Below are positions 17,314-63,381 of a stretch of 64,000 nucleotides of DNA, piece by piece. The notes under the pieces were generated by a model, which saw only the letters and a list, made by a program, of their open reading frames with translations, had not been told where the DNA came from and did no database searches. The DNA is from an uncultured Methanosarcinales archaeon. GTDB lineage: Archaea > Nanobdellota > Nanobdellia > Woesearchaeales > CAXGTL01. Position 1 is the stretch's first letter; each line of letters begins with the position of its first letter. The DNA lies in contig CAZHVK010000004.1 in assembly GCA_964535955.1 (NCBI GenBank), positions 70,222-134,221 on the forward strand. The letters are read 5' to 3'. Position numbers and translations under genes: made by a program.

Positions 17314-17505
17314 TTAACTTTCTTCACTCAATCCTTCATCAATATCATCTAATGTTGACCCTACATTACTAATATCTTCACCAAGTTCACCTACTTTTGC
17401 AGCAGCTTCTTCATCAGACTTAACATCACTTGTTTCACAACCAGTTGCTGTTAAAACTACTATCACTAACATCATTATTATTAATAAACAAATTATCTTC
17501 TTCAT
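17314..17505 (-). CDS. small lipoprotein
   Basis: Signal peptide with ATGC lipobox-like Cys; overlaps stop of upstream gene. Confidence 0.65.
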   Translation of the reverse strand: MKKIICLLIIMMLVIVVLTATGCETSDVKSDEEAAAKVGELGEDISNVGSTLDDIDEGLSEES

Positions 17506-20975: not shown

Positions 20976-21104
20976 TAATACCACCTTCTTTTTTATTAAT
21001 AAAACAATGATTAGTATAATAATTACTAATCTCACTTATTTAGAAGGATGATATATATAAAGTTAACGTTAAAATTATAAGAATATATACCATAAAAATA
21101 AAAA

Positions 21105-26913: not shown

Positions 26914-29900
26914 CTAAGAAGCTGCTTTCAGCATTTTTATTGCTTCTTCCCTTGTATGTATCAGGCCTTTAGCTTGCCAAGATTTAACCATGTTCATGTA
27001 CTTGCCTACTTCTGGTCCTGGCTTGACCTCTTTTATACTCATTATGTCACCACCTGTCAAGAATGGTTTTGCTTTAGGAGCTGGTTTAAGACTGAAATCA
27101 CCCAATGGTTTGGGCTTTAATTTAACAATATTATTGCCAAGATCCACCACATCTCCTCCTTCTAGACCAGATAAATGGGCATAAACACTCATCCTAGTCT
27201 CAGGACTTACATGTTCAGGTACACTCTTTCCTGGAATACATCTTCCCCACCCATCACCTTCAACCAAAACAACCTTTACTTTGCCTAACTGTCCTGTTTT
27301 TTTAAGTAATTCAATTACTTCATCTCTTCTTTCCATACTAGCTACAATCACACCTTTTGATAGGTCTGTTTGTTCAAATGGATGATGTCCTTCTATTCTT
27401 CCAAAAGCAGTATAATCATTTGCTCTTGCAGCACCACTTTCACCAAGTGTACTAGCATAATATTCATACCTTGATTCCGGTGTGTCTAATATTTCTTCTA
27501 GTTTTTCTCCTTGTTTTATTCTTTGTTTAATTTGTTCTTCAACTGGGTTTTTTTGTTTATTTGGTTTTGATTCTACATACTGTCTATACTTTGGATCATT
27601 TAATATGTCTTCTAATTTTTCACCTTGTGATAGTCTTTTGTTCATTTGTTCTAAAAATTGATTTTTTGGTGATTTTGGATTTGTTTCTAAATAATATCTA
27701 TACATATCTTGTTCAGTGAATGAACCTTTTTTTATCTGTTCTAAAGAATAACCTTTTTGTAATTTTCTTTCTACCATATCAATTACCATATTTTCACTAA
27801 GAAACTCTTTTGCATTTTCAGCATCCATAACACCATCTATTTTTTTACCAAAAGAGGTTCCTCCTTTTTGTAAAGCTATATTTTTTTGCACACCATTTTT
27901 AAGATCGCCAGGTAAATAAACACTTCCATCATCCAGAATTCTGGGCAGATAAAAAAATTCTACATCACCATATTGGTACGATGGATCAAGCATAGTAAAC
28001 ACATCTCCTTTAGATCCTTTTAAAGCATCTCTTGGACTTGGAATATCACGAGGTTTTAAAGAACCTGTTTCCAAGATTCTTTCAAGATTTTCAAAACTAG
28101 TTGAATGTGAATAACCTAAACTTTCTACTACTGCTTTTGACTGCCCTCTAAATTCCTGCATCAATGCTTGTATTTCTTCTGGTTTGACACCTGTTCTTGC
28201 AGCTACTTGTTGTATTTGTTGTTGTACTAATACTTCTCTGTTGTGCACAGAATTTTTCATTGCATTTTCCCTATACACTCTGAACATTGCTTCATCAAAA
28301 GCAGCATTATCTTCTTGTCTTAGTTTTAATAGATCATGTTCTTCTTTTATCACACTTTTTCTATCTGTATCTTGAGTCAATGTGTGTTCTATTTTTTGTC
28401 TCATTGATGCAACACTTTCTTCAGAAGCTTTTGCAGTGCTAAACCCTTCCATGTCAGACTGAAGTACTACACTAAATTCTCCCTTTTTTGTCACAAACAA
28501 TATTGTTTCCAAACCATTTTCAGATTTTATCACATATCCTGGACAACCATTTTTAACACTCCTGAACTCAATATTAGGATCATTAAGATTTATCTCTTTT
28601 CCTTGATAAACAATCACAGGACTACCATCACTGCCTTTTAAAACAGAAAGATCATCATCAAGATTTTCAAATGATATAAGTGCTGCTTGATCAGCTTTAT
28701 ATTCTCCTTGTAATAATACTGCTGCTTTTTCTGAAAATCTATCTTTTCCAATCTTTAGCTCTTGTCTTATCTTATCATCTAATGCATCTGCCACACCTGC
28801 ATCTTCTGTAACTGCATCATTCACTTTTTGTTCCAAGCTTGCATCAACTTGTTCTCCTTTTAGATAGAATTCAGTTTGAATTTCTTTTGCAGTCATCAAT
28901 CTTTTTAGGTCATCTGTTGTAGGTTCAGACATTTCAGCATTAAAAAGTGCTTGCAAAGTCATTGGTTCATCTATTGTTTTTCCATCTAATGCTGCTATTG
29001 CTTGTTCAAATTTATACTGTGCATCTGCTGCTTTGAACATTTGTTCCATGCCTTGTTTGACTTCAGTAATATCATGAAACCTTGGACTATTAAGATCAAC
29101 ATTTTTTGCAATAAAGAATGAATTGCCATTAGGATCCATGACTTTCCATCCACCTTCAAGTACTTCCATGTTTTTTAGAGCTAATTTACCTGCATTAAAT
29201 GTAGTGTCAGCTGCAAGAACATTCAATGTTTCACCATCAATAACAGTAAGTTTTGAAGTAGCTTCTAGACCTTGTTCAAGAAGATAATCAGCATCAGGCC
29301 CACCATCCAGAGCCATAACAAGTAATTCTAATGATGGATGAATATATCCTGCACCTTCTTCTATTACTTCGACACCAACTTCTGCTAATACTTTTGTAAC
29401 AACTCCTCCAGCATGTCCTAATTTTGCTTTAGCCAGAGCAAGTGTTTTTACCATCTTAGCACCAGTTGTTGTTGATGACAACAAAGCACCACCACCTTTT
29501 GCAATCAAACCATATCCTGCTAATGCAGCAGGGTTTGCAATTGCAAAAGCAGTTGAACCAATGCTGTATTGAGCAAATTCATCACCTACTAAGAATGCAT
29601 CTTTGAATTTTGATCCAGACCCTTCACCAGTTATACTTACATAAAGTTCTTTTGCTTGAGCAGCGATCTTTTCATCAGTTGAAGCCATTAATTGTTTTGA
29701 TATTACTGATGCTGCTGCTTGAAAATTATCTTGTGATCTGTATTTGATAGCAGCTTGAAGTTTTTTTGCTTCTATTTCCTCAACACTTGGTAATTCTTTG
29801 TTCCATCCTTGTGTTTGTATTGCAACTTGCATCATTGGATTATTTTCCAAAGATTCAGAAACAGCTTGTGTATACAATATTGTTTCTCTTGTTCTTGGGT

Positions 29901-32439
29901 CAGCGATTCTTAGTTCAGAATTAATTCCAGTAATTCCTTCTCTTTCAAAAATATTAACTGTTTCTCCTGTATCAATGTCAAAACTCATCCCATTATTTTT
30001 AATCAAATGGATAGCTGTAGGAATATCAGGTGCAATTCCTTTTTGTATAAGTTCAGAAGCAAAATTAAGCCCTTGTGACAAAACAACTTTATCATACTCA
30101 ACAATGTCTAATGCACTAAACTGTTCTTGTACAACATCTACTCCAAAATCAGCAATATTTCCAGGATTTAAAGCTGCAAATGCATTTGCTATGGAGATGT
30201 CTTTTGAAAAATCTTTATAAGGTTTTTTTAATCTTTGTTCCCATTGTTGATATCCTACTTCATTATTTTTTAATGCAACCCCAATATAATTTAATGAATC
30301 TAATTTTGTGATTGTTTTTTTAGCTTGTTTTCCTTCAGTGCTAATAGGATCATGTTTGATAATATCATTAAGATATTGTCTTGCAATATCAGTATTTCCA
30401 TGCCTGGAATAATATGCTGCAAGTTCTAATGAAGCAATACTAGCTTGTCTACTTCCTTTATGTTGAGAAGCTACTGATATTAATTCTTTTCTTCCTTTAG
30501 ACAAGTCACCTTTTGCAAAATATGCATGCGCTTTCATCAGATCCTGCATATTCTCTCCTAAAAACAATTGTGATTTTTTTGCACTTAACAAGTTTACAGA
30601 AGTTCCTTGTTTTAATTCTAGTTTTCTTATTCTGTTTTTAAGTTCTTTATAAAATTTCTCTCTTCCTTCAAGATGAAAAATAGCTTTTTCTTCCTGACTA
30701 TCTAGTTCAGTTAACTTTTTCTTTAACAACTTTAGTTCTTTTTCTTCAGATTCAGTCAGCCTGCTCTCAATATTATTGCCATACCTTATACCAAATATAT
30801 GATTAACACCAAAATATGCTTGTCTATCACCTAATTCTACCATTATGTCTTTATCAATTGCTAAAAATTTATCAGGATCAATATCAATATCTGCTAACAA
30901 TGCAAGGCTTTGTTTATCAAACTCTAGTTCTGGTTTGCCATCCTTGTTGACAACAGTTGTTTTGATTCTCATTGTGCCAGATACAAATCCTTGTTCTGCT
31001 GATAAGTCACCTGTCTTTACTTTTTTTGTTACTTCTGCAACAGCTCCATCCTGATCACTTTTTATATGGATTGACTCATCATCTTTGCTTACAATTATCT
31101 TACTATTTGTTCTATCCTGTAATCCTTTGCAATTACTATGTGGAGTATCAACTTCTACTTTTCCTACTGTTGCAACACCTTGTATCTCTCCTGCATCAAT
31201 GATCATTACCAATGATTCACCAGGAACCACACTCTTTTTTAGTTTAGCTGCCTTTTCTCCAACCACATTTATATCAAAATAAAGATTAGCAGCTGCAGAA
31301 TCGTGCTTGACCTTTATATCATTCTTTTTATCAGAATATTTTCCATCCTTTGACAATAATTTTGCTGTTCTAAGATAATTGCCTCCTCCAAACTCTACTT
31401 CAAACTCTCCTGAAAACAAATGCTGTCTGTCATCACTTGCTTCACTGAATATTTCACCAAACTCTGTTTCAGCATCTTTTGCACTCAACTTTTTCCAGCT
31501 ACCATCTTGGTTAAATTCAATTTGTGAAACTCCTTTAATCCTACCATGTAATAAGTCAGTTAATGAAGAACTCTTATCCAATAATTCAACACTACTAAGT
31601 TTTTCATTTTCTAGCTTAGCTACAAACTTACCTCTTATCTCTTTCATGCCCATTACAACTTCTGCATTGTCAGCACTTATCTCTTCAGAACTTATCATAA
31701 GTGTTCCTTCAAAATTAATAAACTCACCTAATTCAAACTCTCCTTCAGCATAGCCTTTGACAATTGTCTTAAGTTCTTCTATCTTCATATTTGTACCAGG
31801 AGCAATCTCAGAAACAACAAGTCCTGTCTTAGGGTCGACAACAGCACCGCCTGTGTTAAATGTGATAGAGCCGTCTTTTTCTAATACCATTTGTTCTCCT
31901 TGAACACCCATATTTCTTGGTTCAAACACAAACTCATTGTCTTCAGAATCATAACTTATCTTTGTCGCACCGTATGGAATCTTTCCTTGTTCTTCATCAC
32001 CTATTGTTAAGATAAGTTCACTGGTCTTTTCTTGATCACCATCATCATACTTAAACTTTATTTTAGCAGGATCATCTGAAAACTTCATACCTTTTACAAC
32101 ATTAAATTCAATCTCTTCATTACCAATCAAGTTTTGCATGTGCTTGTTAAATGCTTCAGCATTTTCACTTATGTCAACTTTAGAAAAATACTTATTGATA
32201 GATTCTCTATTTTCTTCAACATCTAGATTTTCCAGGTCACTAAAAAACTTTTTAGCACATTCAAGACACTCTTCAACATTCTTGGGATCTTTGAAAAATT
32301 CTATCTGTTTTTCATGAGGATACGCTTCAAACCAGCTTATATCTTTTTCTTCAGCATTAGCCTCATCACCATTTTCTCCAATAACATATAGGCTACATAA
32401 AACAATTACAATCATTAAAAAATACATTATTTTCTTCAT
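26914..32439 (-). CDS. giant exported protein, putative polymorphic toxin (stalk, TPR-like segment, hydrophobic region, ART-like domain, CCA-enzyme-like tail)
   Basis: Signal peptide; TPR-like LELAAYYSRHGNTDIARQYL; Ala/Gly-rich hydrophobic region; YSHSTSFENLERILETGSLKP...YGDVEF...RIEGHH; terminal PFLTGGDIM..KPGPEVGK...TREEAI. Confidence 0.7.
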   Translation of the reverse strand: MKKIMYFLMIVIVLCSLYVIGENGDEANAEEKDISWFEAYPHEKQIEFFKDPKNVEECLECAKKFFSDLENLDVEENRESINKYFSKVDISENAEAFNKHMQNLIGNEEIEFNVVKGMKFSDDPAKIKFKYDDGDQEKTSELILTIGDEEQGKIPYGATKISYDSEDNEFVFEPRNMGVQGEQMVLEKDGSITFNTGGAVVDPKTGLVVSEIAPGTNMKIEELKTIVKGYAEGEFELGEFINFEGTLMISSEEISADNAEVVMGMKEIRGKFVAKLENEKLSSVELLDKSSSLTDLLHGRIKGVSQIEFNQDGSWKKLSAKDAETEFGEIFSEASDDRQHLFSGEFEVEFGGGNYLRTAKLLSKDGKYSDKKNDIKVKHDSAAANLYFDINVVGEKAAKLKKSVVPGESLVMIIDAGEIQGVATVGKVEVDTPHSNCKGLQDRTNSKIIVSKDDESIHIKSDQDGAVAEVTKKVKTGDLSAEQGFVSGTMRIKTTVVNKDGKPELEFDKQSLALLADIDIDPDKFLAIDKDIMVELGDRQAYFGVNHIFGIRYGNNIESRLTESEEKELKLLKKKLTELDSQEEKAIFHLEGREKFYKELKNRIRKLELKQGTSVNLLSAKKSQLFLGENMQDLMKAHAYFAKGDLSKGRKELISVASQHKGSRQASIASLELAAYYSRHGNTDIARQYLNDIIKHDPISTEGKQAKKTITKLDSLNYIGVALKNNEVGYQQWEQRLKKPYKDFSKDISIANAFAALNPGNIADFGVDVVQEQFSALDIVEYDKVVLSQGLNFASELIQKGIAPDIPTAIHLIKNNGMSFDIDTGETVNIFEREGITGINSELRIADPRTRETILYTQAVSESLENNPMMQVAIQTQGWNKELPSVEEIEAKKLQAAIKYRSQDNFQAAASVISKQLMASTDEKIAAQAKELYVSITGEGSGSKFKDAFLVGDEFAQYSIGSTAFAIANPAALAGYGLIAKGGGALLSSTTTGAKMVKTLALAKAKLGHAGGVVTKVLAEVGVEVIEEGAGYIHPSLELLVMALDGGPDADYLLEQGLEATSKLTVIDGETLNVLAADTTFNAGKLALKNMEVLEGGWKVMDPNGNSFFIAKNVDLNSPRFHDITEVKQGMEQMFKAADAQYKFEQAIAALDGKTIDEPMTLQALFNAEMSEPTTDDLKRLMTAKEIQTEFYLKGEQVDASLEQKVNDAVTEDAGVADALDDKIRQELKIGKDRFSEKAAVLLQGEYKADQAALISFENLDDDLSVLKGSDGSPVIVYQGKEINLNDPNIEFRSVKNGCPGYVIKSENGLETILFVTKKGEFSVVLQSDMEGFSTAKASEESVASMRQKIEHTLTQDTDRKSVIKEEHDLLKLRQEDNAAFDEAMFRVYRENAMKNSVHNREVLVQQQIQQVAARTGVKPEEIQALMQEFRGQSKAVVESLGYSHSTSFENLERILETGSLKPRDIPSPRDALKGSKGDVFTMLDPSYQYGDVEFFYLPRILDDGSVYLPGDLKNGVQKNIALQKGGTSFGKKIDGVMDAENAKEFLSENMVIDMVERKLQKGYSLEQIKKGSFTEQDMYRYYLETNPKSPKNQFLEQMNKRLSQGEKLEDILNDPKYRQYVESKPNKQKNPVEEQIKQRIKQGEKLEEILDTPESRYEYYASTLGESGAARANDYTAFGRIEGHHPFEQTDLSKGVIVASMERRDEVIELLKKTGQLGKVKVVLVEGDGWGRCIPGKSVPEHVSPETRMSVYAHLSGLEGGDVVDLGNNIVKLKPKPLGDFSLKPAPKAKPFLTGGDIMSIKEVKPGPEVGKYMNMVKSWQAKGLIHTREEAIKMLKAAS

Positions 32440-38083: not shown

Positions 38084-39283
38084 TCACTCAAGAAAACAAT
38101 ACAGATTATAATCTTTCTCAATAAGATCGCAAACTTTTATCAATCTTATGTCAAGACCATCTTCTTTAGCTCTTATAGCTTCTTCATAAGAACCATCTTC
38201 ACCATGTGAAAAAGAAAAAGCAATAACAACACCTTTTGTCTTACCTTTTCTTCTCATCGCTGTTTCAAACTTATCAACCCATTCTCTTCCAACTTTTTCT
38301 ACTTTTTTTATAGAGATAGCGACTTGTGGATCATTTATAGGATACATCCCATCAATTCCTTTATCTCTTGTTGCTGGTGACCTTTGTGCACCTAAAATAT
38401 CGCAGATATAATGCTCAAATGCAATTGGTTTTAATTTTTCTAATTTCCTAATACTTAATTTTTCTAATTCATTTATGTCTGGTTTAAGATTAATACTTTC
38501 AACATATGAAACATTTCCATGCTTTTCCATTCTTTCCATTATGTCTTTACATAATATAGGAGAAATATCAATTCCAATATACTTTCTACCTAATGATTGC
38601 GCAATCTCTAGTGTCTGACCATTGCCGCACATTGGATCAACCACATTATCATTTTCATCAGTGCTTAATAATATTAATAATTCAACAAGATTTCTAGGTT
38701 TTCTTCTTTTATAACATTTGTATAATTGTTTATCTTGTTTATCAGGATCAATTTCCCACACATCACCATTTATTTCAATACCTTGTTTATTATTATATTC
38801 TTCAATAATCTCTTTATTAAATGTGATTAGTTTTTTATCACTTGGTTTTCTTATCTTAACATATCTTAGAATTACATCATATTTTTTATCAATATCTTTT
38901 TCTCTTGGTCTTCCTGATTTTTTCTTAACACTCCACACAATTCTGTTCCTGCACTTATCTCTTCCATTAAAAATATCATCCATCTTCATCTTAAGATAAT
39001 CAACATAATCAGGATTACAATGCAGATACATTGTGCCACCAGGTTTTAAAACCCTATGACATTGTTCTAATCTGAGTTCTACCCATGACAGATAATGCCT
39101 TATGCCGCCTTTTTTCATTTCTTCAAACATTTCTAATGTGTATTCATCATACTCTATTCCTTTTTTTCTTTTTACAGGAATATCAGCATATATAATATCA
39201 ATAATATTACTTTCAAAACCATCTCTAAAAACATCATAACAATCTCCACAGCATATTAAATTGTCTTCTAAACTGATTTGCAT
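38084..39283 (-). CDS. N6/N4 DNA methyltransferase fused to Mrr-like endonuclease, with degenerate motifs
   Basis: IIYADIPV, RVLKPGG, RNRIVW, VVDPMCGNGQT, IGIDIS; C-term FEHYIC..DKGIDG..ISIKK..KGVVIAFSFS. Confidence 0.85.
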   Translation of the reverse strand: MQISLEDNLICCGDCYDVFRDGFESNIIDIIYADIPVKRKKGIEYDEYTLEMFEEMKKGGIRHYLSWVELRLEQCHRVLKPGGTMYLHCNPDYVDYLKMKMDDIFNGRDKCRNRIVWSVKKKSGRPREKDIDKKYDVILRYVKIRKPSDKKLITFNKEIIEEYNNKQGIEINGDVWEIDPDKQDKQLYKCYKRRKPRNLVELLILLSTDENDNVVDPMCGNGQTLEIAQSLGRKYIGIDISPILCKDIMERMEKHGNVSYVESINLKPDINELEKLSIRKLEKLKPIAFEHYICDILGAQRSPATRDKGIDGMYPINDPQVAISIKKVEKVGREWVDKFETAMRRKGKTKGVVIAFSFSHGEDGSYEEAIRAKEDGLDIRLIKVCDLIEKDYNLYCFLE

Positions 39284-40183: not shown

Positions 40184-40283
40184 GTATATAGAAAATGCAA
40201 CACCTTTATAAATTTTTTGTAAGAAATATCCATATATTATGCAACACTATTATAATATATCTAATGGTTTGGGGGTAATAAAC

Positions 40284-40745
40284 ATGGATAAAAAAGAATT
40301 ACAAATGCTTGCGCATTTAAGGACAAATGGTAGAATGAGACTGACAATCATGAGCAAAAAAATACATGTACCAGTTTCAACTTTGTATGACAAACTAAAA
40401 CAATTTCAAAAAGGTTTGATAAAAAAACACACAGCTCTTATTGATTTTAAAAAACTTGGTTTTCACACAAAGTCCAGAACAATGATCAAAGTTGATAAAC
40501 ATGATAGAAATTCTGTAAAATTATATTTGTCAAATCATCCAAACATAAACTCTGTGTACAAGATAAATAATGGCTATGACTTCTTAATAGAAGGAATATT
40601 CAGACATATAAGAGATGTTGAAGATTTTCTTGAAAAACTTGATCAAAAATTCAATATAAAAGAAGAAAAGACATATTATGTTGTAGATGAAATCAAAGAA
40701 GAAGGATTTTTGTCAAACCCTGATTTGTTGTTGGTTGTGATGTGA
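40284..40745 (+). CDS. Lrp/AsnC family transcriptional regulator
   Basis: LRTNGRMRLT..VPVSTLYDKL; VYKINNGYDFLIE; paralog of 42710-43186. Confidence 0.9.
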   Translation: MDKKELQMLAHLRTNGRMRLTIMSKKIHVPVSTLYDKLKQFQKGLIKKHTALIDFKKLGFHTKSRTMIKVDKHDRNSVKLYLSNHPNINSVYKINNGYDFLIEGIFRHIRDVEDFLEKLDQKFNIKEEKTYYVVDEIKEEGFLSNPDLLLVVM

Positions 40746-41278
40746 TGAACATAACAAAACCAATTGGAAAAAGAAACAGACTTTATACTAAAGAAGAAGC
40801 AATGGCTATGTTAGAAAAACAAAAAAAAGAAGAAAAGAAAAAAGAACAAAAACAACAAAATACAAAACAACAAAAAAACAAAAAACAACAAAAAAACAAG
40901 AAAACAAAAAGAGATGAAGAAGAAATCATAATAAAAGGACCACATTCCTACACAAACCATTATCTCTTTAAACTGTTTCCATTATTAGACCAAGCAAGAT
41001 GTGTCATAAACAATAACAAAGACGCACCTGATGAAATTGAGATTATTCATGAGGACAAAGTAAGTGAACATGTTTACCTCGCAACACACCTATACATATT
41101 AAAGCATTATTCTGGTTTGATCAGGCACAGGTTTGGTAGCCATCCTTATGAAGGAAGAATGGATTATGGAAGAGACTATTGTTCTCTTCAGGAGATTGTA
41201 GATAATAATTGGATTGAAGAAAAAAGTCTTGAGGTAATGTATAATAATTTGTTGGATATTGTTGATAAGTATTCTTAA
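40742..41278 (+). CDS. hypothetical protein, NITKPIG-leader family (paralog of 42151-42696)
   Basis: Shared N-terminus, K/Q-rich linker, C-terminal MYNNLLDIVDKYS. Confidence 0.7.
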   Translation: MMNITKPIGKRNRLYTKEEAMAMLEKQKKEEKKKEQKQQNTKQQKNKKQQKNKKTKRDEEEIIIKGPHSYTNHYLFKLFPLLDQARCVINNNKDAPDEIEIIHEDKVSEHVYLATHLYILKHYSGLIRHRFGSHPYEGRMDYGRDYCSLQEIVDNNWIEEKSLEVMYNNLLDIVDKYS

Positions 41279-41281
41279 AAA

Positions 41282-42157
41282 ATGATAAACATAACAAAGC
41301 CGATCGGAGAGAGAAAAAGATTGTTGAGTAAAGAAGAAGCTAAAGCAATGTTAGAAATATATGAAGCTGTTGGTAAAAGAATTCAAGATAAAAATCCAGT
41401 ATCCATAACCTATGATTCAGATTATTTTGTAATAGATGATTTTGTAAGAAAAGATGCAAATGGAAACATAATCGAGCAATATGATAAATTAGGCGTGATG
41501 AATGATGTTGTAAGATATAAAACAGAAACTTATAATAATAATACTCAACCTAGGCATAAAAGCAAAACACCTTATCTCTGGACTACTGTTTTTGAAAAAC
41601 AAGAAAATTTATGGCTGCCGAGCAGTGCTACACTAGCTGGAATCATGATCTGTTTGTTTAGAAAAGCTGTTGAAAAAGGTAAAAATGGTAATTTTATTGT
41701 TGTTGATGAAAAAGCAGCAAGATTGTTAGAACAGTTCAAAGATTATGGAAAAGTCACTGGATGGCATGCATGCAATACTGTTTTCATTGATAATAAAATA
41801 ATACATTATCCTGGTACAGATGATTATCCTGGTATTTATACAAATAACATCAATCAAAAATTAGATAGAAAAGTATTGCCATTTAATAGAGTATTAGAAT
41901 TACAATATCTGGGTAATTTTCTTAGATCTGATAAAGGAAGAATGAATATAATTAATTTTACAGGTGAGTATGATGAACCTGAAATTTTACTAGATATTGG
42001 TAAATATTTTAAAAGAACACCAATAATCCATGGACCTTTAAGCAGGTATATCAGAGCATGTTGGTTTGGCTGTGATAGTAGATCCCTTGAGCTTTATGCT
42101 GTTAAGAAGATTCATTTCGATGCTGGTGCCCGAGGAGTATGTAAAATAAAATGCTAA
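41282..42157 (+). CDS. hypothetical protein, NITKPIG leader plus CLec/DGR-target-like C-terminus
   Basis: Ends RACWFGCDSRSLELYAVKKIHFDAGARGV. Confidence 0.6.
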   Translation: MINITKPIGERKRLLSKEEAKAMLEIYEAVGKRIQDKNPVSITYDSDYFVIDDFVRKDANGNIIEQYDKLGVMNDVVRYKTETYNNNTQPRHKSKTPYLWTTVFEKQENLWLPSSATLAGIMICLFRKAVEKGKNGNFIVVDEKAARLLEQFKDYGKVTGWHACNTVFIDNKIIHYPGTDDYPGIYTNNINQKLDRKVLPFNRVLELQYLGNFLRSDKGRMNIINFTGEYDEPEILLDIGKYFKRTPIIHGPLSRYIRACWFGCDSRSLELYAVKKIHFDAGARGVCKIKC

Positions 42158-42696
42158 ACATAACAAGACCAATTGGAGAAAGAAACAGACTTTACACAAA
42201 ACAAGAAGCAATAGCTATGTTAAAAAAACATAAAAAAGAAGAAAAGAAAAAAGAACAAAAACAACAACACATGAAACAAGAACAAAAAGCAAAAGAGAAA
42301 AACAAAAAACCAGACAAATACACACAACAAGATCAACAAAAACAAGAAAACATAAGACCAGATTATTACAAACAAAACCTTGTCTCTTTATTAAAAAAAG
42401 CACAAAAAATAATAAAAAACAACAACAAAACACCAAACAAGTTTCTTATACTAAAACAATATTTTAAAGAAGATTCTTGTTTGCGTAATGGCAATCATTT
42501 CTATTTGTCAAAGCATTGTGATATAGGCTATATAATGAGGCATCATTTTTATTATCTTTCGTCATGTGTAGAAGTAGATTGTGGTAAAGAACCAGCAAAA
42601 CTTGAAGATCTTTTAAAAAATAATTTTGATAATTCAGAAGGAATTAAGATCATGTATGATAATTTGTTGGATATAATAAAGAAGTATTCAGTCTAA
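42151..42696 (+). CDS. hypothetical protein, NITKPIG-leader family
   Basis: Shared N-terminus; C-terminal MYDNLLDIIKKYSV. Confidence 0.7.
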   Translation: MLNITRPIGERNRLYTKQEAIAMLKKHKKEEKKKEQKQQHMKQEQKAKEKNKKPDKYTQQDQQKQENIRPDYYKQNLVSLLKKAQKIIKNNNKTPNKFLILKQYFKEDSCLRNGNHFYLSKHCDIGYIMRHHFYYLSSCVEVDCGKEPAKLEDLLKNNFDNSEGIKIMYDNLLDIIKKYSV

Positions 42697-42709: not shown

Positions 42710-43186
42710 CTAACCATCACTCTCTCCAACAATCTCAACCAATTCAGGACTACTCAGAAAACCTTCTCTTTTTATTTCATCTATAATATAATAGGCTTTC
42801 TGATCTATGATTGTAAACTTTTCATCTAATTTTTCAATAAAGTCCTCTGCATCTTTGACATGCTTAAATATGCCTTCAACTAAAAAATCATAACCATTAT
42901 TAATCCTAAACACAGAATTAACAAGATGATGTTTTTCTAGATAACTTCTCACCAAATCCCTGTCTGTTTTATTAACTTTTACCATGATATTTGCTTTGGT
43001 ATGAAACCCTAGTGCTTTGAAATCAAGCAAAACAGTATGTTTTCTAATTAATAATTTCTGAAAATTTTTCAACTTATCATATAATGTAGTCACAGGCATG
43101 TGTATTTTTTTGCTTAGCTTTGTTAATTTAATTCTTCCACTTTGCCTTAAATGTGCTAACATTATTAGTTCTTTTGGTTTTAACAT
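42710..43186 (-). CDS. Lrp/AsnC family transcriptional regulator
   Basis: LRQSGRIKLT..MPVTTLYDKL; VFRINNGYDFLVE; GGTGA SD. Confidence 0.9.
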   Translation of the reverse strand: MLKPKELIMLAHLRQSGRIKLTKLSKKIHMPVTTLYDKLKNFQKLLIRKHTVLLDFKALGFHTKANIMVKVNKTDRDLVRSYLEKHHLVNSVFRINNGYDFLVEGIFKHVKDAEDFIEKLDEKFTIIDQKAYYIIDEIKREGFLSSPELVEIVGESDG

Positions 43187-43197
43187 ATTTATTTCAC

Positions 43198-43470
43198 CTA
43201 ATTAAATATCCATATCCTTCTACCCTTAACCTTGCTCCACACATAGATATTTCTTATTCTTTTATCTTTCCTATCAAATGTACTTCCAATAGTAATGTCA
43301 AAATTTGTAATAGGAGCACCTGTTCTTCTTTTTCTCACATCTATCTCACTAAACTCTCTCCATTCTTTACCAAAGTCTATAGGTGCATCATCAACTACAT
43401 TTCCGCACCTAGTACAATAGACTATGGTTGATTCAACTTTCAATATTCCATTACATTCTCGACATTTCAT
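43198..43470 (-). CDS. stand-alone TFB/TFIIB N-terminal module (zinc ribbon + B-reader)
   Basis: KCREC...YCTRCGNVVDD..IDFGKEWREF...RRTGAP; ATGA overlap with upstream gene. Confidence 0.88.
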   Translation of the reverse strand: MKCRECNGILKVESTIVYCTRCGNVVDDAPIDFGKEWREFSEIDVRKRRTGAPITNFDITIGSTFDRKDKRIRNIYVWSKVKGRRIWIFN

Positions 43471-45773
43471 TTTATAGTTGTGAGGGCTTTTTCGATCTTT
43501 TCAACATCTACATCTGCTGCTTCACTTATATCTTTCATGTCATACTTAACATTGTTCTTTTCATAGATCCTACACATAGCAACAGCTACCAAGATCTTCA
43601 TGTTCTTGTCTCTTAACCTTCCTTGTTTGATAAATTCTCCTAACTTCAGCATAAGTTCTTCTTTTTCTTTTATGCTTAGGTTAAGCATTGCAGACACTAT
43701 TTTTGTCTGTCTTAGCAAGATTCCAATGCACCTGTTAGCACGGTCTTCCCAAGTACCTATCTTGTACTTGGTTCCACTATATGCTGTTCTAAGATCCTCC
43801 AGTGTAATACCAAACTCACCGTATGGCATAAAATGTGTGCCTATTGTTACACCACGTTCATGAATGTCTGTACCAAGTCCTCTGTCATATTCTGTGTATT
43901 TTTCACTTCCAAATATTGCTCCAAGACCAGCTCTTCCACTATCTTTTCTTGAAACCTTAGAGAGTTGCATCCTTAACTTCCTTTCTATAGGAGTGCTTGA
44001 ACGATTCTGCCATCTTCTTAGTCTGTAGAATTTCCCACTACTAGGCATTTTTCTGCAAGCATGGAGTCCACTCAAAACACCAACTCTTGCACCAGCCATA
44101 ACAGGATCCACATCTTGCGGAACTTCATTACCAATCTCTGCATCAATCACAGCTTTTTCACCTTTTTCAGTATCAACAGCAACAAGAGATGTATATTGTG
44201 ACATCAGATGATACTTTAATGCAATCTTTGTAATCTTTGCTTCTAATTCTTTGTTCAGACCTCTTGCATGGTGTGCAATATAATCTTCAGACATTAGTTT
44301 AGCAATATGTTTTCTAGCCCATAACATTGATATTGCACTTCCTTGTTTTTTCTTACTAAACTTGATTTTGATCTTTTTCTCAAATCCATCTGCTTTTATC
44401 ACTAAGATGCCATCTTTTTTTGTTTTACCATACACAACAACAGGTTTATTACTAAACAGATCATTTACCATTTTCGGATATATTTCTGCACCCGCCATAT
44501 TAATTTGTATATTTTTTAGCAATGGATTAGCAATCATGCTATAAAATTTCTTAGCAGCTTGTTTTGCATCATCATCAGTTGTTACATACAATATTTCCCC
44601 TCTTCCTTCTTCAGCCATTTTTTCAGTAAGATACCTGTTAGAAGAATAACCTACCCCAAACACAAAAAACCTTGCATGTTTTGACCTTGCTTTGATTTCT
44701 TCAATCACTTCAAACTCATTTCCAATTGCACAGTCAGACATAAAACAAACAATCCTTAATCTGTCTTTATCATATGGTAATCCTAATGCTTCTCTTACAG
44801 CAGGAACCATTTGTGTTCCACCATTACCATATCTTTGCACTAAAAATTGTAGTGCTTGTTCAACATTTTCTTCTGTATTCTTTCTTGGAGCTTCAAATAC
44901 TTTTATCATATCATTTGAAAAAGATATCAATTGAAATGTATCATCTTTATTCATATTCTTAATACAATGTTTCATTGTTTCTTTTGCTTTTTCAATAGGC
45001 CATCCACTCATTGAACCAGAATCATCTATCACAAAGATCATTTCTTTTGGCAAAACTTTTTCTTTATCAATTTTCTCAGGAGGATGTATAACAGCCATAA
45101 AAAATTTTTCTTTACCAGCATTTTGTGTAATCACAGCATCTGATATTTCTTTTTCAGTTACATTATATGTTAAGATGAAATCCTTGTTTCTTCTTGCTTT
45201 TTTAACAAGGATCTTATCTTCTTTTACATTTATCTTATGAGACTTTGACTTGATCTTTGTAGGTTTTTTACCAGGATTTAATACTATCTCAAAATCAGCA
45301 ACACATTCTCTTTTAAGACTAAACAATGTAGTGACTTTTTTAGTATCCTCAACACCATGAGGCACAAACTTAGGCATCATTGTCAATGGATGTACATAAG
45401 TATAAGTATTATCTTGTCTTTTTATTTGTTGCAGAAACTTGATTGTTACTTTAATTTCTTGCTTTGGCTGCATATTTGCAATGTTTTGCGTAAACAGGTT
45501 AGGCCTTTCTTGTTCTATCAAGCTTGCCACTTTTCCTTGTTCTTGAGCTTTTTCAAATATTTTTCTAGCTTCTTTTCTTTCTTTAATCTGTGACACAATT
45601 TTTCTTTTTCCTATTTCTATAACACTTTCATATACAGCAGAATTCTCTGGTAATGGAAACTGATATACAACATTTGTAGCTTGTTCTAGATCATTTCCAA
45701 AACATTGTTCTACTTCTACTTCAGCTATATGATTCAATATTTGTGTTTTTATATTCATTTGTTTTAGTTTCAT
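43467..45773 (-). CDS. VIT + vWA domain protein with C-terminal TFB-derived segments
   Basis: VIT: YQFPLPENSAV..IKERKEARKIFEKA..ASLIEQERPNLFT; MIDAS DDSGSMSG, GGT, SD; LWAR, SQYTSLVAVD; TFB-like tail from ~44039; GGTGG SD before ATG 45773. Confidence 0.88.
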   Translation of the reverse strand: MKLKQMNIKTQILNHIAEVEVEQCFGNDLEQATNVVYQFPLPENSAVYESVIEIGKRKIVSQIKERKEARKIFEKAQEQGKVASLIEQERPNLFTQNIANMQPKQEIKVTIKFLQQIKRQDNTYTYVHPLTMMPKFVPHGVEDTKKVTTLFSLKRECVADFEIVLNPGKKPTKIKSKSHKINVKEDKILVKKARRNKDFILTYNVTEKEISDAVITQNAGKEKFFMAVIHPPEKIDKEKVLPKEMIFVIDDSGSMSGWPIEKAKETMKHCIKNMNKDDTFQLISFSNDMIKVFEAPRKNTEENVEQALQFLVQRYGNGGTQMVPAVREALGLPYDKDRLRIVCFMSDCAIGNEFEVIEEIKARSKHARFFVFGVGYSSNRYLTEKMAEEGRGEILYVTTDDDAKQAAKKFYSMIANPLLKNIQINMAGAEIYPKMVNDLFSNKPVVVYGKTKKDGILVIKADGFEKKIKIKFSKKKQGSAISMLWARKHIAKLMSEDYIAHHARGLNKELEAKITKIALKYHLMSQYTSLVAVDTEKGEKAVIDAEIGNEVPQDVDPVMAGARVGVLSGLHACRKMPSSGKFYRLRRWQNRSSTPIERKLRMQLSKVSRKDSGRAGLGAIFGSEKYTEYDRGLGTDIHERGVTIGTHFMPYGEFGITLEDLRTAYSGTKYKIGTWEDRANRCIGILLRQTKIVSAMLNLSIKEKEELMLKLGEFIKQGRLRDKNMKILVAVAMCRIYEKNNVKYDMKDISEAADVDVEKIEKALTTIK

Positions 45774-45794
45774 ATTAACCACCTTTGTTAGTTC

Positions 45795-45908
45795 TGCTGA
45801 AACCCTCGTCTGTAAGACCAGTGAACCAAGGTTAAACCTCGTCAGATGACATTGGTGCTCCATTTGATTTTGCATAGATTGGAGCAGGTGAACGAGTGGG
45901 TTTCAGCA
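45795..45908. ncRNA. putative structured element, copy 2, in the 5' leader of the VIT-vWA-TFB operon
   Basis: Terminal IR TGCTGAAACC(C)..CTCGT / ACGAG..GGTTTCAGCA; hairpin TGCTCCA/TGGAGCA; core CGTCTGTAAGACCAGTGA and GAACGAG. Confidence 0.6.
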
Positions 45909-46056: not shown

Positions 46057-46359
46057 ATGAGGCTGGTAAAAATAGACATAAAAGATGAAGACATTGTAAA
46101 GGAAAAGATCAATGAAATAGAAAATGACTGTCTTAGACAAGAGCTTGAGGTTATAATGAAACACATGAAAGTCAACAGAGACCAAGCCTACACGCTTCTG
46201 ATGAAGTATCGGGATATATGGGAATTTACTAATAATGTCTCAACATCAGGCTCTAGTCTTATTATCACTCTTCCTAAGAAAGATGCAAAAGAAAAAGGCA
46301 TTGAAAAAGGCACTCCAGTGTTTATTGCTCTGAAAAGGCTAAGATTTAAGCATATTTGA
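46057..46359 (+). CDS. AbrB/MazE/SpoVT-type DNA-binding protein
   Basis: VSTSGSSLIITLPKKDAKEKGIEKGTPV. Confidence 0.8.
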   Translation: MRLVKIDIKDEDIVKEKINEIENDCLRQELEVIMKHMKVNRDQAYTLLMKYRDIWEFTNNVSTSGSSLIITLPKKDAKEKGIEKGTPVFIALKRLRFKHI

Positions 46360-46401: not shown

Positions 46402-47289
46402 ATGGAACCAAAACTAGACCTTGTCAAAGGCTGTATATTTGGACTGGCAATAGGAGATGCACTTGGAGCAACAGTTGAAAACCTAAATTCTACACAAATA
46501 AAAAACAAGTTTGGTATATTGAAAGATATTCTAGGTGCTGGATGGTTAGGTCTAAGACCAGGCCAGTTCACAGATGATACACAAATGATGTTATGCTTAG
46601 CACATTCTTTAGTAGAAAAAAAAGGTTTTGATATAAATGACATTGCACATAGATATGTTATATGGAAAAATTCTAATCCACCAGACATTGGCAGAACAGT
46701 TAGAAAAGCAGTTACTAATCTAGAAAATGGTGTTCCACCTACAAAGTCAGGCATTCCTGCACCAGCAGCTGGAAACGGCAGTGTAATGAGATGTGCACCA
46801 ATTGGAATAGCATTTTGTAATTCTAAGTTTTTAGAAGAATATTCAATGCTTGACTCAGGAATAACACACGCAAACCCAATGTGCAGAGAATTGTGTGCAA
46901 TGATTAATCTTATGATTTCAAAATTAATAAAAGGTGAAGAACTTAAACAGGTTTTTAAATCAGTAACTTCAAAAATAGATTACAAAGACAATCAAACAAT
47001 TGTTTTTGGAACACAACCTGCTAATTATCCATCTGCATACATACTAGACACATTACCAACAGTATTTGCAGCACTTAATAATAATTCAGACTTTGAATCA
47101 ACATTAATAACAGTTGTTAATTATGGTGGTGACGCAGACACAACAGGTGCAATTTGCGGTGCAATTGCAGGCGCTTATTATGGTTTTAGTTCTATACCTA
47201 AAAAATGGTTAGATAAGATAGATTGTTATGAAGAATTAGAAAAGGTTAGTATTGGTTTGCTTGAGTTGAGTAAAAAGATAAAGAAATAA
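46402..47289 (+). CDS. ADP-ribosylglycohydrolase (DraG/ARH family)
   Basis: GLAIGDALGATVE, FTDDTQM, GNGSVMRCAP, ITH, GGDADTTGA. Confidence 0.95.
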   Translation: MEPKLDLVKGCIFGLAIGDALGATVENLNSTQIKNKFGILKDILGAGWLGLRPGQFTDDTQMMLCLAHSLVEKKGFDINDIAHRYVIWKNSNPPDIGRTVRKAVTNLENGVPPTKSGIPAPAAGNGSVMRCAPIGIAFCNSKFLEEYSMLDSGITHANPMCRELCAMINLMISKLIKGEELKQVFKSVTSKIDYKDNQTIVFGTQPANYPSAYILDTLPTVFAALNNNSDFESTLITVVNYGGDADTTGAICGAIAGAYYGFSSIPKKWLDKIDCYEELEKVSIGLLELSKKIKK

Positions 47290-58375: not shown

Positions 58376-59430
58376 TTTAACCACTACATTTTATATACAA
58401 ATTATGATTTTGATTATCATTTAACCACTACATAAACTTATACTGTTCAAGATATTCTTTTAAACAGAATTTACAGATTGCCTCTACTTTACCTTTTCTT
58501 GAATTTTCTAAAGCTTCTAGGTAGTCTGTTCTTTTTCTTACATGTATTGCTAATGGAGCAAGTTTCTTGTACATCAAAAGCCAACAAAGAACCAATCTCC
58601 CCACCCTTCCATTACCATCAACAAAAGGGTGTATTATCTCAAATTGTGCATGTGATTGAAAAGCAACCTCAAAATCATTTATTTTCTTAAAACCTTGTTT
58701 TATCCATCTTAACAATGTTTCCATCCTTTCTTTGATAAATAAATAAGAGGAAGTATAAACATCGCCTACATAATTCTGAACTTTTTTGTATTTGCCTAAT
58801 GTTTCATCAGATTCAATATCTTTGTTTACTAGTTTGTGAAGTTCAAACAGATCTTTGTGCTTAGGTAATCTCTTATGATTAGCTTCAACATAGTTCCATG
58901 CTTTTAACAGATTATCTGCCATATGGAGTTCTTTTTTCTTATGACCTTTTGGAACAGTATCTTTGAATAAGTAATTGAATGTTTCTTTGACTGTCAAGGT
59001 AGAACCTTCTATTGCATTGCTGTTTGATATGAATATACTTAAGAATTTCTCTTTTTCTTTTTGTTTTGACACTTTGTCTAATTCTTTTATATATCTCTTG
59101 TATGTGTCTGAAGCTTTTTTTAGTCTATTATGGTCTTGGTAAGATAAAGTATCTTTGTATTCTTTAAGTATCCAGTCTTGTTTACTGTATGAGTATTTCA
59201 TACATTCAAACTCATCTTTGGTTATTGGTCTCTTTTTTCCAATATATTTTATAGTCTTTTGTATTACTTTGTTTTTTTTTCTTATACTATGTACTAGATA
59301 AAGATATTCATTTCCATTGATCTTCTTTGTTACTATGCTTACCATGAAAGATATTAACCACTACATATATTTAAATCTTTCGTCATAAAATATAAAATAA
59401 TAAGAAATGCAGATGAATTTAACCACTACA
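58376..59430. repeat. four direct copies of TTAACCACTACA bracketing the Fic gene
   Basis: Copies at about 58376-58389, 58420-58433, 59353-59366 and 59418-59430. Confidence 0.85.
58428..59345 (-). CDS. Fic family protein (AMPylase)
   Basis: HPFVDGNGRVGR catalytic motif; SNAIEG autoinhibitory motif. Confidence 0.95.
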   Translation of the reverse strand: MVSIVTKKINGNEYLYLVHSIRKKNKVIQKTIKYIGKKRPITKDEFECMKYSYSKQDWILKEYKDTLSYQDHNRLKKASDTYKRYIKELDKVSKQKEKEKFLSIFISNSNAIEGSTLTVKETFNYLFKDTVPKGHKKKELHMADNLLKAWNYVEANHKRLPKHKDLFELHKLVNKDIESDETLGKYKKVQNYVGDVYTSSYLFIKERMETLLRWIKQGFKKINDFEVAFQSHAQFEIIHPFVDGNGRVGRLVLCWLLMYKKLAPLAIHVRKRTDYLEALENSRKGKVEAICKFCLKEYLEQYKFM

Positions 59431-60187: not shown

Positions 60188-60652
60188 TTATTCTAATTTT
60201 TCTAATATCTTTTTCTTAAGTAGATTAATGTAAACATTTAATTGCAATTCTATTTCTTTAAAATCATTATAACTAACTGGCTGGCCATAATAATTGATCC
60301 CATTTCTTTTTGTTCTAATTTTCTCAAAGAATTCCCAGCTTAATTCTAGTTCTGGATGTTTTATGCATAAGTATGCAAACAAACATTGGTGGTTCAGAGA
60401 TTTTATTTTATCAAATCTTATGAAAGCTTCTACAAGTTGTCTCAACACATCATAATAATTTCTAAAGATTATACTCCATCCATAACTCTCTTTAGGAGTC
60501 TTTTTAATTAATTGTTGTATTACTTCAAGACCTGCCACCGAGATATTTAACATAGTTTTAATTTTATCTAAATCAATTTTCTCCATAAATATAAACATGC
60601 CATTTTGTTCGCATTTATTAAATATTTCCTCTTTAGTTTTTTCTTTAGGCAT
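60188..60652 (-). CDS. HEPN-like protein (partner of MNT)
   Basis: YYDVLRQL..NHQCLF..IRTKRNGINYYG; overlaps MNT gene. Confidence 0.7.
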   Translation of the reverse strand: MPKEKTKEEIFNKCEQNGMFIFMEKIDLDKIKTMLNISVAGLEVIQQLIKKTPKESYGWSIIFRNYYDVLRQLVEAFIRFDKIKSLNHQCLFAYLCIKHPELELSWEFFEKIRTKRNGINYYGQPVSYNDFKEIELQLNVYINLLKKKILEKLE

Positions 60653-61193
60653 TTAATTTCACCTCGAAGAAATTTATCTCACCTTTAACAAGATGACCTT
60701 CTATAATGTTTCCTATTAATCCAGGACCCATCTTCTTTAAATCTCTTTTATTTTTTGCAGTAAATAACTGTATCTCTCTATGCAGTTTTAATTCATATTT
60801 CCCTAACTCAAAATCATCATCATCACCATATATAAACAAATCAATATCACTTTCTTTGTACCAGTCTGATCTTGCCATACTTCCGAATATAATAACAGTT
60901 TTTGCTTTTTTTAGTGATAGTAGATGGTTTAGAAAACCTGTTTTATAGAATTGCTGTAATGTGAAGAGTTTTTTTCTATTTCTGTATGAGGGGTGTTCAT
61001 AATTGCTAATATAATAAGGCATTTTTCCTTTTTCTTTAATTCTTTTTATTATATTTTCTTTTATTAATCTTTTTAACCAATTATTTGTTTTATCTCTACT
61101 TACCTTACTTTGCTTTAATATATCTTTAAAATACCAATATTTGGTAGGTTGGTTAAAGAATAGTTCTAGTATTTGGTATTCTTTACTTCTCAT
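60645..61193 (-). CDS. HTH + minimal nucleotidyltransferase (MNT) protein
   Basis: N-terminal wHTH; IIFGSMARSDWYKESDIDLFI. Confidence 0.9.
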   Translation of the reverse strand: MRSKEYQILELFFNQPTKYWYFKDILKQSKVSRDKTNNWLKRLIKENIIKRIKEKGKMPYYISNYEHPSYRNRKKLFTLQQFYKTGFLNHLLSLKKAKTVIIFGSMARSDWYKESDIDLFIYGDDDDFELGKYELKLHREIQLFTAKNKRDLKKMGPGLIGNIIEGHLVKGEINFFEVKLNA

Positions 61194-63265: not shown

Positions 63266-63381
63266 AAATCTATCATTTTACATTAGTCTATCAGAATGTC
63301 TTTTTTTAGTATTTGGAGTGGAAGGAAGTATTTAAAGGTTTTGTCCTAATCTTTATATACTTCCATACCTTCCCCTTTATC

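Follow-up and report, generated by a model that had tools for sequence, protein, structure and literature searches.

TFB-like segments distributed over a VIT-vWA fusion protein and an adjacent zinc ribbon protein in an archaeal operon

Introduction

In archaea and eukaryotes, RNA polymerase (RNAP) is placed on promoters by the initiation factor known as TFB and TFIIB, respectively. In complexes of Pol II with TFIIB, the zinc ribbon binds the dock of RNAP, the reader is inserted into the RNA exit channel and points to the active site, the linker lies at the clamp coiled-coil and the upstream edge of the bubble, the first cyclin repeat contacts the RNAP wall and TBP-DNA, and the second cyclin repeat reads the B recognition element (BRE). 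Here, we report the analysis of a minus-strand gene cluster in a 64,000-nucleotide stretch of archaeal DNA (contig CAZHVK010000004.1 of assembly GCA_964535955.1, positions 70,222 to 134,221 of the forward strand; hereafter, the window), in which TFB-like segments are distributed over two adjacent proteins, namely, the C-terminal tail of a protein with VIT and vWA domains and a 90-residue zinc ribbon protein.

A first-pass annotation of the window, made from the sequence alone, had singled out this locus as a VIT-vWA protein fused to parts of the TFB core. To our knowledge, natural proteins that reuse only the polymerase-contacting parts of TFB are few (TFB3 and some Brf-like or viral forms), and we know of none in which these parts are carried on a vWA scaffold.

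Results

Organization of the gene cluster

The window has a G+C content of about 30% and is archaeal as judged by an FttA/aCPSF1-type KH-beta-CASP nuclease, a proteasome subunit and a class II prolyl-tRNA synthetase with a ProRS-C_1 end. A DPANN-like organism is a plausible source, on the indirect grounds of this low G+C archaeal content and of the Nanoarchaeota label of the only homologue of the fusion protein (P0004, see below).

In the list of open reading frames (ORFs), the minus strand from 45875 to 42710 is occupied by three closely packed genes (Table 1). We refer to the products of the first two as the big protein (P0003) and the small protein (P0002). The frame of the big gene is open from 45875 and amounts to an ORF of 802 residues, which extends 34 codons upstream of the likely start at ATG 45773. 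A Shine-Dalgarno-like GGTGG lies 5 nucleotides 5' of this ATG, and both P0003 and P0004 begin at its position; a 798-residue database form of the big protein, otherwise identical, uses an upstream ATG. Given the spacing of the GGTGG and the starts of P0003 and P0004, the big protein most likely comprises 768 residues (45773-43467). The leader region 45773-45900 folds no better than its shuffled versions (z -0.79), and the minus-strand segment 45774-45875 is more G+C-rich than its surroundings.

The stop codon of the big gene (43467-43469) overlaps the start of the 90-residue ORF as ATGA and an Lrp gene follows, just as the first-pass annotation had described the arrangement. The Lrp gene starts 11 nucleotides after the small ORF, with a GGTGA of its own upstream, and is probably the third gene of the operon; its product may control the operon, or the gene may be co-regulated with it. 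Against Pfam, the Lrp protein matches AsnC_trans_reg (E 1e-3) and HTH_24 (E 6.8e-3), both under the cut-off. Rfam families and tRNAs gave no matches in the window, and the counts from a scan for sigma-70 promoters and terminators equaled those of shuffled sequences, these bacterial models not being meaningful for an archaeon.

Table 1. Coordinates of the three genes and of the domains and motifs encoded in them
Feature	Coordinates	Strand	Evidence
Big gene, VIT-vWA-TFB-tail protein P0003, 768 residues	43467..45773	-	ORF list, Shine-Dalgarno-like site, database starts
VIT domain, P0003 residues 3-113	45435..45767	-	Pfam PF08487, E 1.7e-30, full profile (1-111/111)
vWA domain with MIDAS	44598..45044	-	Pfam VWA_3 2.7e-15, VWA 3.9e-11, VWA_2 1.1e-10
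Extra TFB piece GKFYRLRRWQNRSSTPIERKLRMQLSKVSRKDS, C-terminal half of B-linker helix and start of first core helix, tail 17-49	43938..44036	-	BLASTP, phmmer
B-linker-strand motif YDRGLGTDI, tail 66-74	43863..43889	-	Aligned to FDRGLGTDI of TFB P0006
Single divergent TFIIB-type cyclin repeat, tail ~111-205, five helices	43470..43754	-	AlphaFold, Foldseek, hhalign, Atlas
Small gene, stand-alone TFB N-terminal module P0002, 90 residues	43198..43470	-	ORF list, Pfam, NCBIfam
Zinc ribbon, C3-x2-C6...C19-x2-C22, P0002 1-40	43351..43470	-	Pfam PF08271; cysteines read from translation
B-reader segment ending RKRRTGAPIT, P0002 31-55	43306..43380	-	Alignment to P0006
Lrp/AsnC-family regulator gene	42710..43186	-	NCBIfam Lrp_Halo 6.2e-11; junction sequence

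The small protein corresponds to the N-terminal module of TFB

All four cysteines of a zinc ribbon are present in the small protein, with the spacing CxxC-x12-CxxC, and residues 1-40 match the Pfam family Zn_Ribbon_TF (PF08271) with 33.4 bits, above the cut-off of 29. The NCBIfam model of TFIIB (PRK00423) is matched over profile positions 18-90 of 312 (E 8.6e-10). Aligned with the N-terminus of P0006, one of the TFBs considered in the next section, the small protein is 46% identical over 57 residues that span both IDFGKEWREF and RRTGAP, and the alignment ends at GAPIT in the small protein and GAPMT in P0006. By the residue ranges of the ribbon, reader and linker elements of Pyrococcus furiosus TFB1, as given in the available part of PMC13502027, the aligned region covers the ribbon, the B-reader helix and the B-reader loop. 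The proposal that CxxC...CxxCG-IDFGKEWREF-RRTGAP in this gene represents a TFB zinc ribbon and reader is thus borne out by Pfam, NCBIfam and the alignment to P0006.

TFB-derived segments in the tail of the big protein

The tail is defined here as the last 205 residues of P0003, and its residues are numbered accordingly. An exhaustive phmmer search with the tail among 1.84 billion representative sequences yielded three matches at E <= 1e-3, namely, P0004 (2.3e-7), which has the same fusion, and the TFBs P0005 (8.5e-5) and P0006 (7.5e-4). The identity of the latter two as TFBs was confirmed by Pfam (TFIIB, 9.4e-16 for P0005 and 1.1e-47 for P0006), and P0005 also matched the Pyrococcus woesei TFB core in a search of PDB sequences (1.1e-26). 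The best stretch of both matches is the extra linker-helix piece. BLASTP resolved the similarity to P0006 into two segments: tail 17-49 (GKFYRLRRWQNRSSTPIERKL...) is 52% identical over 33 residues to P0006 602-634, and tail 53-197 is collinear with P0006 568-699, from FDRGLGTDI through a degenerate linker helix to the whole of cyclin repeat 1, with 25% identity. When the alignment of the two tails was compared with that of the two TFBs, hhalign gave a probability of 96.2% over 122 columns. The hhalign and BLASTP results are supporting rather than independent because the partners had been pre-selected as the best database matches.

The sequences of both the B-linker strand (YDRGLGTDI) and the B-linker helix (KFYRLRRWQNR..IERKL) could be aligned to those of TFBs, and they occur in a non-canonical order. 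The linker helix is present twice, in one sharp copy and in one degenerate copy, YKIGTWEDR, which precedes the cyclin repeat. A simple permutation of TFB is ruled out by the extra copy of the linker helix and ERNL (17-49) that stands before the collinear segment (~62-198). The motif D-x-GL-x-T-x-I, originally taken for the B-reader, has to be reassigned to the B-linker strand on account of the spacing in P0006 and the TFB1 ranges: counting along P0006 from the threonine of RTGAP (T58 in P. furiosus), the D of the motif falls at the position of E74.

In the AlphaFold model computed with the two tails, residues 1-86 are disordered, and residues ~88-205 have a predicted local distance difference test score (pLDDT) of ~70-86, with a dip to 54 at 101-110; helices are formed by residues 111-133, 138-153, 162-176, 183-190 and 194-204. 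Some elements of TFIIB become ordered only on RNAP. In a Foldseek comparison of the tail with the PDB, the first 21 rows listed are TFIIB, TFB or Brf2 cores or initiation complexes with TFIIB or Brf1, the identities of chains within these complexes being taken from entry titles and chain lengths. The crystal structures of cores superpose with a root-mean-square deviation of 1.7-2.4 A over 82-90 columns (1.7 A over 84 columns for 1ais_B), and the first family other than TFIIB, cyclin D1, appears at rank 23. A language-model look-up in the ESM Atlas with residues 60-205 placed 19 of 30 matches in clusters of TFIIB repeats (score 0.92, 186-188 shared features).

On the strength of these alignments and models, we regard the tail as derived from TFB. 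The earlier proposal of B-linker pieces and a first cyclin repeat in this region is upheld by phmmer, BLASTP, hhalign and the fold model, and its companion, the absence of the second cyclin repeat with the BRE-reading helix-turn-helix (HTH), holds as well: there is room for only one repeat of five helices ahead of the stop codon, and the gene that follows opens with the ribbon. The big protein itself has no N-terminal zinc ribbon.

The VIT-vWA body is related to secreted bacterial proteins

The part of the big protein that precedes the tail is a complete VIT-vWA body with an intact MIDAS (metal ion-dependent adhesion site), a reading of the first-pass annotation with which both Pfam (Table 1, with VIT and vWA above the Pfam cut-offs) and an alignment of 31 sequences (A3) agree. 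In this alignment, the MIDAS residues DxSxS...T...D (D250, S252, S254, T320 and D347 in P0003 numbering) are invariant. With the same 31 sequences, AlphaFold modeled residues 1-540 with a pLDDT of mostly 80-95; in the full-length model, the pLDDT of the tail is below 50, and its position relative to the body is uninformative. The best match of the body in a Foldseek search of the PDB is human ITIH1 (6fpy_B, E 1.7e-35 over 604 columns), followed by a trypanosome flagellar protein (E 1.3e-20); only these two rank above the archaeal ArnAB complex (8s05_B, E 1.6e-15), and an ArnB paralogue (5a8j) was also matched (E 1.4e-11).

A word-based search with the big protein retrieved 1675 proteins at E <= 1e-10. 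Among the 120 matches listed, those other than the query and P0004 are ~36-42% identical over ~69-80% of the query, that is, over the body only. The named homologues of the body among the matches listed are bacterial (from Pyrinomonadaceae, Acidobacteriota and others), and they end differently, in TonB_C, MotA/ExbB or LolA. Against the NCBIfam family TIGR03788 (marine proteobacterial sortase target), the big protein scores 421.2 bits, below the equivalog cut-off of 551.65.

We assessed secretion with a simple Kyte-Doolittle hydropathy scan. A hydrophobic, signal-peptide-like N-terminus was found in 25 of 29 homologues picked from the top of the list and in neither of the two archaeal proteins. 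The maximal hydropathy over 15 residues within the first 70 is 0.48 in the window protein and 1.11 in P0004, compared with at least 1.98 in 25 of the 29 others. The scan detected no hydrophobic or transmembrane-like segment anywhere in P0003 or P0004, in which the VIT domain lies directly at the N-terminus. Because 25 of the 29 homologues have a signal-peptide-like N-terminus and the archaeal pair lacks one, the body looks like a module of bacterial, secreted ancestry that has lost its signal peptide and become cytoplasmic in these archaea.

Distribution and conservation

The identical big protein was found on 5 contigs, with 2 more for the form with the other start, and the small protein on 7, from several sources. 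Given these repeated contig records and a fusion junction that is common to P0003 and P0004, a one-off misassembly is unlikely. Only identical copies were recovered, so that there is no variation to analyze. The single other cluster with the fusion is P0004, a 716-residue protein annotated as 'VIT domain-containing protein [Nanoarchaeota archaeon]' (MFC1774937.1). The family is extremely rare, consisting of 2 clusters. P0003 and P0004 are 55% identical overall, with 60% identity in the body (336/557) and 36% in the tail (57/159), and without a frame break; the tail has remained open and foldable despite this divergence, which suggests purifying selection.

Searched with tblastn, phage records contained no match to the tail, and the body matched only bacterial VIT-vWA genes on plasmids. 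The small protein was matched only weakly (E 0.03), and only in the ribbon, by full-length TFB genes that Halorubrum tailed viruses carry; the gene in OP630574.1 (31688-32620), listed as the sole phage match to the small protein, is annotated as transcription initiation factor IIB and adjoins a PCNA gene.

No fusion of VIT or vWA with TFB was found in the open full-text literature, with subscription-only papers lying outside this search, in agreement with the earlier statement that no description of the architecture was known. The domains, truncated TFBs and pairs of vWA and zinc ribbon proteins are all known; it is their combination that appears to be new.

Coincidence of the TFB break with an intein insertion site

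In the TFB P0006, a LAGLIDADG intein of ~500 residues (Pfam Intein_splicing, 74-576) separates GAPMTY from TRFDRGLGTDI. The small ORF is homologous to TFB as far as GAPIT (43306-43320), and the collinear homology of the tail starts just before YDRGLGTDI (43863-43925), which is the site of the intein in P0006. Moreover, the alignment of the tail runs 9 residues into the end of the P0006 intein (G.GAIF, 5/9 identical). The coincidence may be due to chance, or the two TFB parts may descend from a TFB allele that contained an intein and was broken there.

Two related candidates were rejected. A split intein that would yield a trans-spliced TFB is not compatible with the absence of a Pfam Intein_splicing match in either protein and with the replacement of the terminal HN; beyond the break, the small ORF has another 35 residues, which would not suffice for an N-intein. 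These last 35 residues were also considered, by eye, as a degenerate B-linker strand, and BLASTP produced no alignment to the P0005 fragment at E <= 100.

Genomic neighborhood

The Lrp/AsnC-like gene that closes the VIT-vWA operon (42710-43186, minus strand) has a paralogue at 40239-40745 on the plus strand, 65% identical over 149 residues, and the two face each other across 2 kb. The plus-strand paralogue heads a three-gene block. The region 40742-42696 (plus strand) contains three consecutive paralogous genes that encode proteins of 178, 291 and 181 residues, for which no Pfam or PADLOC family was found. These proteins share the N-terminus M.NIT(K/R)PIG.R.RL..K.EA.AML and the C-terminus Y(D/N)NLLDI..KYS, and two of the three contain a long low-complexity stretch rich in K, E and Q.

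Genes related to ADP-ribose and AMPylation are clustered in the window, at 24444-26756 (minus strand), 46402-47289 (plus), 58428-59345 (minus) and 63313-63906 (plus). They encode a 770-residue fusion of HEAT repeats with an ADP-ribosylglycohydrolase, a stand-alone ADP-ribosylglycohydrolase, a Fic protein and a Macro-domain protein. The stand-alone ADP-ribosylglycohydrolase lies directly upstream of the operon on the opposite strand, preceded by an AbrB/MazE-like ORF (46057-46359). The eukaryotic vault PARP also joins VIT-vWA with ADP-ribosylation.

The gene at 38084-39283 (minus strand) encodes an N6/N4 DNA methylase fused to a restriction endonuclease domain of the Mrr type (Pfam 7.5e-40 and 1.5e-7; PADLOC MTase_II). 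Two large minus-strand genes, 26914-32439 (1841 residues) and 17502-21035 (1177 residues), belong to no Pfam family at E <= 1e-5, and the product of the larger one has no PADLOC match either. On the minus strand at 60188-61193 and 61889-62713, a nucleotidyltransferase gene (Polbeta/NTP_transf_2) overlaps an unassigned ORF of 154 residues, and by their arrangement the two could form an NTase/HEPN-like pair; a BRO-N protein is encoded nearby, hinting at mobile or viral DNA. With the methylase-Mrr fusion, the two ADP-ribosylglycohydrolases, Macro, Fic, the nucleotidyltransferase and BRO-N, the neighborhood has the appearance of a variable region of the conflict type.

Discussion

A possible promoter-blind TFB mimic

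Between them, the two proteins hold the ribbon, reader, linker and cyclin 1 elements of TFB and have no cyclin 2. Because all RNAP-contacting elements are present and the BRE-reading second repeat is absent, we read the pair as a promoter-blind TFB mimic, a tentative interpretation to which we would give somewhat less than an even chance. Under this interpretation, a VIT-vWA protein would have lost its signal peptide and gained the TFB tail; the ribbon/reader protein and the linker/cyclin tail would bind RNAP, and possibly TBP, at the sites used by TFB; and the bound pair would compete with the genuine TFB or else hold RNAP on the VIT-vWA scaffold, the MIDAS being a possible switch. A more elaborate variant would make the pair a switchable anti-initiation factor: a signal (for example, of infection or stress) received at the MIDAS would lead to RNAP being clamped at the TFB sites and to transcription being shut down or re-routed, in a dormancy or abortive-infection-type response of the kind proposed for TFS4. 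We consider this variant quite unlikely.

Should the pair bind RNAP, it would amount to a TFB dissected by nature, in which recruitment (ribbon, reader, linker and cyclin 1) is set apart from promoter reading (cyclin 2), and it would be a candidate for a factor that regulates or inhibits transcription globally in DPANN archaea, about whose regulation almost nothing is known. The locus is, in addition, a clean example of how an adhesion-type module of secreted bacterial proteins has been relocated to the cytoplasm of archaea and rewired through a fusion. The weight of these implications is limited by the rarity of the family, with its two protein clusters, and by the fact that the function is one that we infer.

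Several results weigh against the mimic interpretation. With respect to the TFB derivation of the tail, the E-values of hhalign and BLASTP are pairwise, and the search of PDB sequences with phmmer and hmmsearch, although it placed P. woesei TFB core 4-89 in register with tail 114-199, gave E-values of 0.3-0.8, which are not significant, and ranked the unrelated MxiA (E 0.044) above the TFB cores. The NCBIfam TFIIB model matched the tail over profile positions 103-134 with a likewise non-significant E of 1.1, and no Foldseek match of the tail reached E <= 1e-3, the best value being 0.023. A TFIIB or cyclin profile match within 43467-44039, on which the first-pass annotation had staked its reading, was obtained only in part: Pfam assigned no family to the tail at E <= 10, the TFIIB repeat model included, whereas phmmer and hhalign did connect it to TFBs. 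Because the Pfam TFIIB model is silent, the cyclin assignment rests on profile-profile, fold and language-model evidence. At ~25% identity to TFB, the contacts of the repeat with TBP and the RNAP wall may have been lost.

Conservation raises further objections. Gaps in P0004 stand opposite 49 tail residues of P0003, and precisely the pieces with RLRRWQ and DRGLGTDI are lost to them, with YDRGLGTDI located in a 21-residue stretch that is missing from P0004. A function common to the family cannot depend on these two sharp TFB motifs because P0004 lacks both. The older, common part of the tail would then be the PYGE(F/L)GI segment together with the cyclin-like repeat, and the sharp motifs would either have been kept only in the lineage of the window or have been re-acquired there. 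A search with the tail among proteins of 441-1404 residues found only the protein itself, as did the search for relatives of the small protein at 49-158 residues, and the last 35 residues of the latter (43201-43305) have no detectable similarity. A profile scan of genome contigs returned 56 loci, all bacterial by title and aligned only up to query residues ~534-610, that is, over the body, in a scan that yielded neither the genome of the window nor that of P0004. The gene pair has been seen in one genome only.

Alternative explanations

One alternative, compatible with the mimic interpretation, is a switch of the ArnA/ArnB type, in which the ribbon of the small protein would dock on the beta-sandwich or the C-terminal helical domain of the big protein, with the TFB parts serving as adaptors, and a signal at the MIDAS or the tail would release or capture a TFB head that acts on transcription. 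The resemblance of the full-length model to 8s05_B and 5a8j speaks for such a switch, as does the shared two-gene logic, with a vWA protein that has a C-terminal helical domain translationally coupled to a small ribbon protein. In the crystal structure described in the available part of PMC12852372, the zinc ribbon domain of ArnA binds ArnB's beta-sandwich and its C-terminal helical domain, and, according to the accessible text of PMC10470591, ArnA and ArnB repress tfb3 and other genes. However, the ribbon of the small protein is of the TFIIB type and that of ArnA is of the RanBP2 type, Pfam detects no FHA domain in the small protein, no gene for a kinase or a PP2A/PP2C phosphatase was recognized among the 67 window ORFs scanned with Pfam, and the tail is unplaced in the full-length AlphaFold model. 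On balance, we regard this switch as unlikely.

The TFB parts could, alternatively, be the debris of a rearrangement, in which a broken TFB paralogue, possibly intein-bearing, was shuffled beside a horizontally acquired VIT-vWA gene, leaving decaying passengers next to a body that alone is functional. The scrambled order, with the C-terminal part of TFB upstream, the N-terminal part downstream and the linker piece duplicated, would be expected of such debris, and so would the loss of both sharp motifs in P0004, the unmatched end of a small ORF for which no relatives of its length were found, the break of TFB homology at the intein site of P0006 and the extreme rarity of the family. Evidence against decay comes from the intact state of the four ribbon cysteines, EWREF and RRTGAP, from a linker-helix piece that is still 52% identical to a present-day TFB, and from a tail that remains open and foldable in both lineages, the bodies of which are by now only 60% identical; furthermore, the ATGA coupling has been kept, and the loss of the signal peptide coincides with the gain of a cytoplasmic-type module. 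We consider it improbable that the TFB segments are mere remnants.

That the TFB pieces are an integrated decoy, a bait on an immune-type vWA scaffold that would sense virus factors aimed at TFB or RNAP and trigger a response through VIT-vWA, appears very unlikely: the conflict-type surroundings (the methylase-Mrr fusion, two ADP-ribosylglycohydrolases, Macro, Fic, nucleotidyltransferase and BRO-N), the recurrence of vWA proteins in prokaryotic conflict systems (PMC7159879, available part) and the presence of TFB genes in archaeal viruses such as the Halorubrum tailed virus are compatible with a decoy, but this support comes from genomic context only, at E <= 1e-3 PADLOC assigned none of the three operon products to a family, the operon encodes no MoxR, STAND NTPase or effector domain, and the available part of the same paper mentions neither TFIIB nor cyclin.

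Comparison with known systems

The closest reference for the motif pieces is archaeal TFB/eukaryotic TFIIB itself: they are 46-52% identical to a TFB of the DPANN type. The differences lie in the architecture. TFB/TFIIB has the ribbon, reader, linker and core in one chain, whereas here they are divided between two polypeptides, with the core-side pieces encoded upstream of the ribbon and the linker duplicated; in place of two cyclin repeats there is one, on which the Pfam TFIIB model is silent, and the BRE-reading HTH is absent; and, unlike in TFB/TFIIB, the pieces are fused to a VIT-vWA body of 560 residues.

Truncated and divergent TFB paralogues, such as Sulfolobus TFB3 and P. furiosus TFB2, provide a second point of comparison. 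In TFB3, the zinc ribbon is retained but the C-terminal HTH is missing, and the protein works in trans alongside the canonical TFB (PMC6101594 and PMC7289017, in their available parts). Like TFB3, the 90-residue protein is a ribbon-containing TFB fragment without the DNA-reading parts. TFB3, however, is crenarchaeal and has a coiled-coil that is essential for activation, whereas the protein described here still has the B-reader, is considerably shorter and comes coupled to the vWA fusion.

With ArnA-ArnB of the Sulfolobales, the pair shares the adjacency of the genes and the combination of a protein with vWA, beta-sandwich and C-terminal helical parts with a zinc ribbon protein. In the Arn system, the two proteins interact through the ribbon, and the module regulates genes; here, the likeness is confined to the structure of the body. 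ArnB has no VIT domain, and ArnA has an FHA domain and a different type of ribbon and operates with the Arn kinases and phosphatases, in contrast to a helical end that appears to be TFB-derived, a ribbon protein without FHA and a window in which no kinase or phosphatase was seen.

The body itself is best compared with the inter-alpha-trypsin inhibitor heavy chains (ITIH) and the bacterial VIT-vWA surface proteins, with which it shares the VIT domain, the vWA domain with MIDAS and the beta/helical region that follows; its identity to the bacterial homologues is ~40% over ~72% of the length. Those proteins are secreted or surface-bound, with signal peptides and with TonB_C, MotA/ExbB, LolA or sortase-signal ends, whereas the archaeal protein has no signal peptide and ends in the TFB tail.

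Finally, functional parallels can be drawn with factors that act on RNAP directly. Sulfolobus TFS4, a paralogue of a basal factor, is a virus-induced global inhibitor of RNAP that keeps the RNAP-binding mode (PMC7289017, available part). For TFS4 and for the viral RIP/ORF145, the parallel is one of functional analogy only, since they belong to a different family and occupy a different site on RNAP (the secondary channel or the clamp). In bacteria, the counterpart in logic to a switchable anti-initiation factor, if the pair were to act as one, would be the anti-sigma and other RNAP-sequestering systems.

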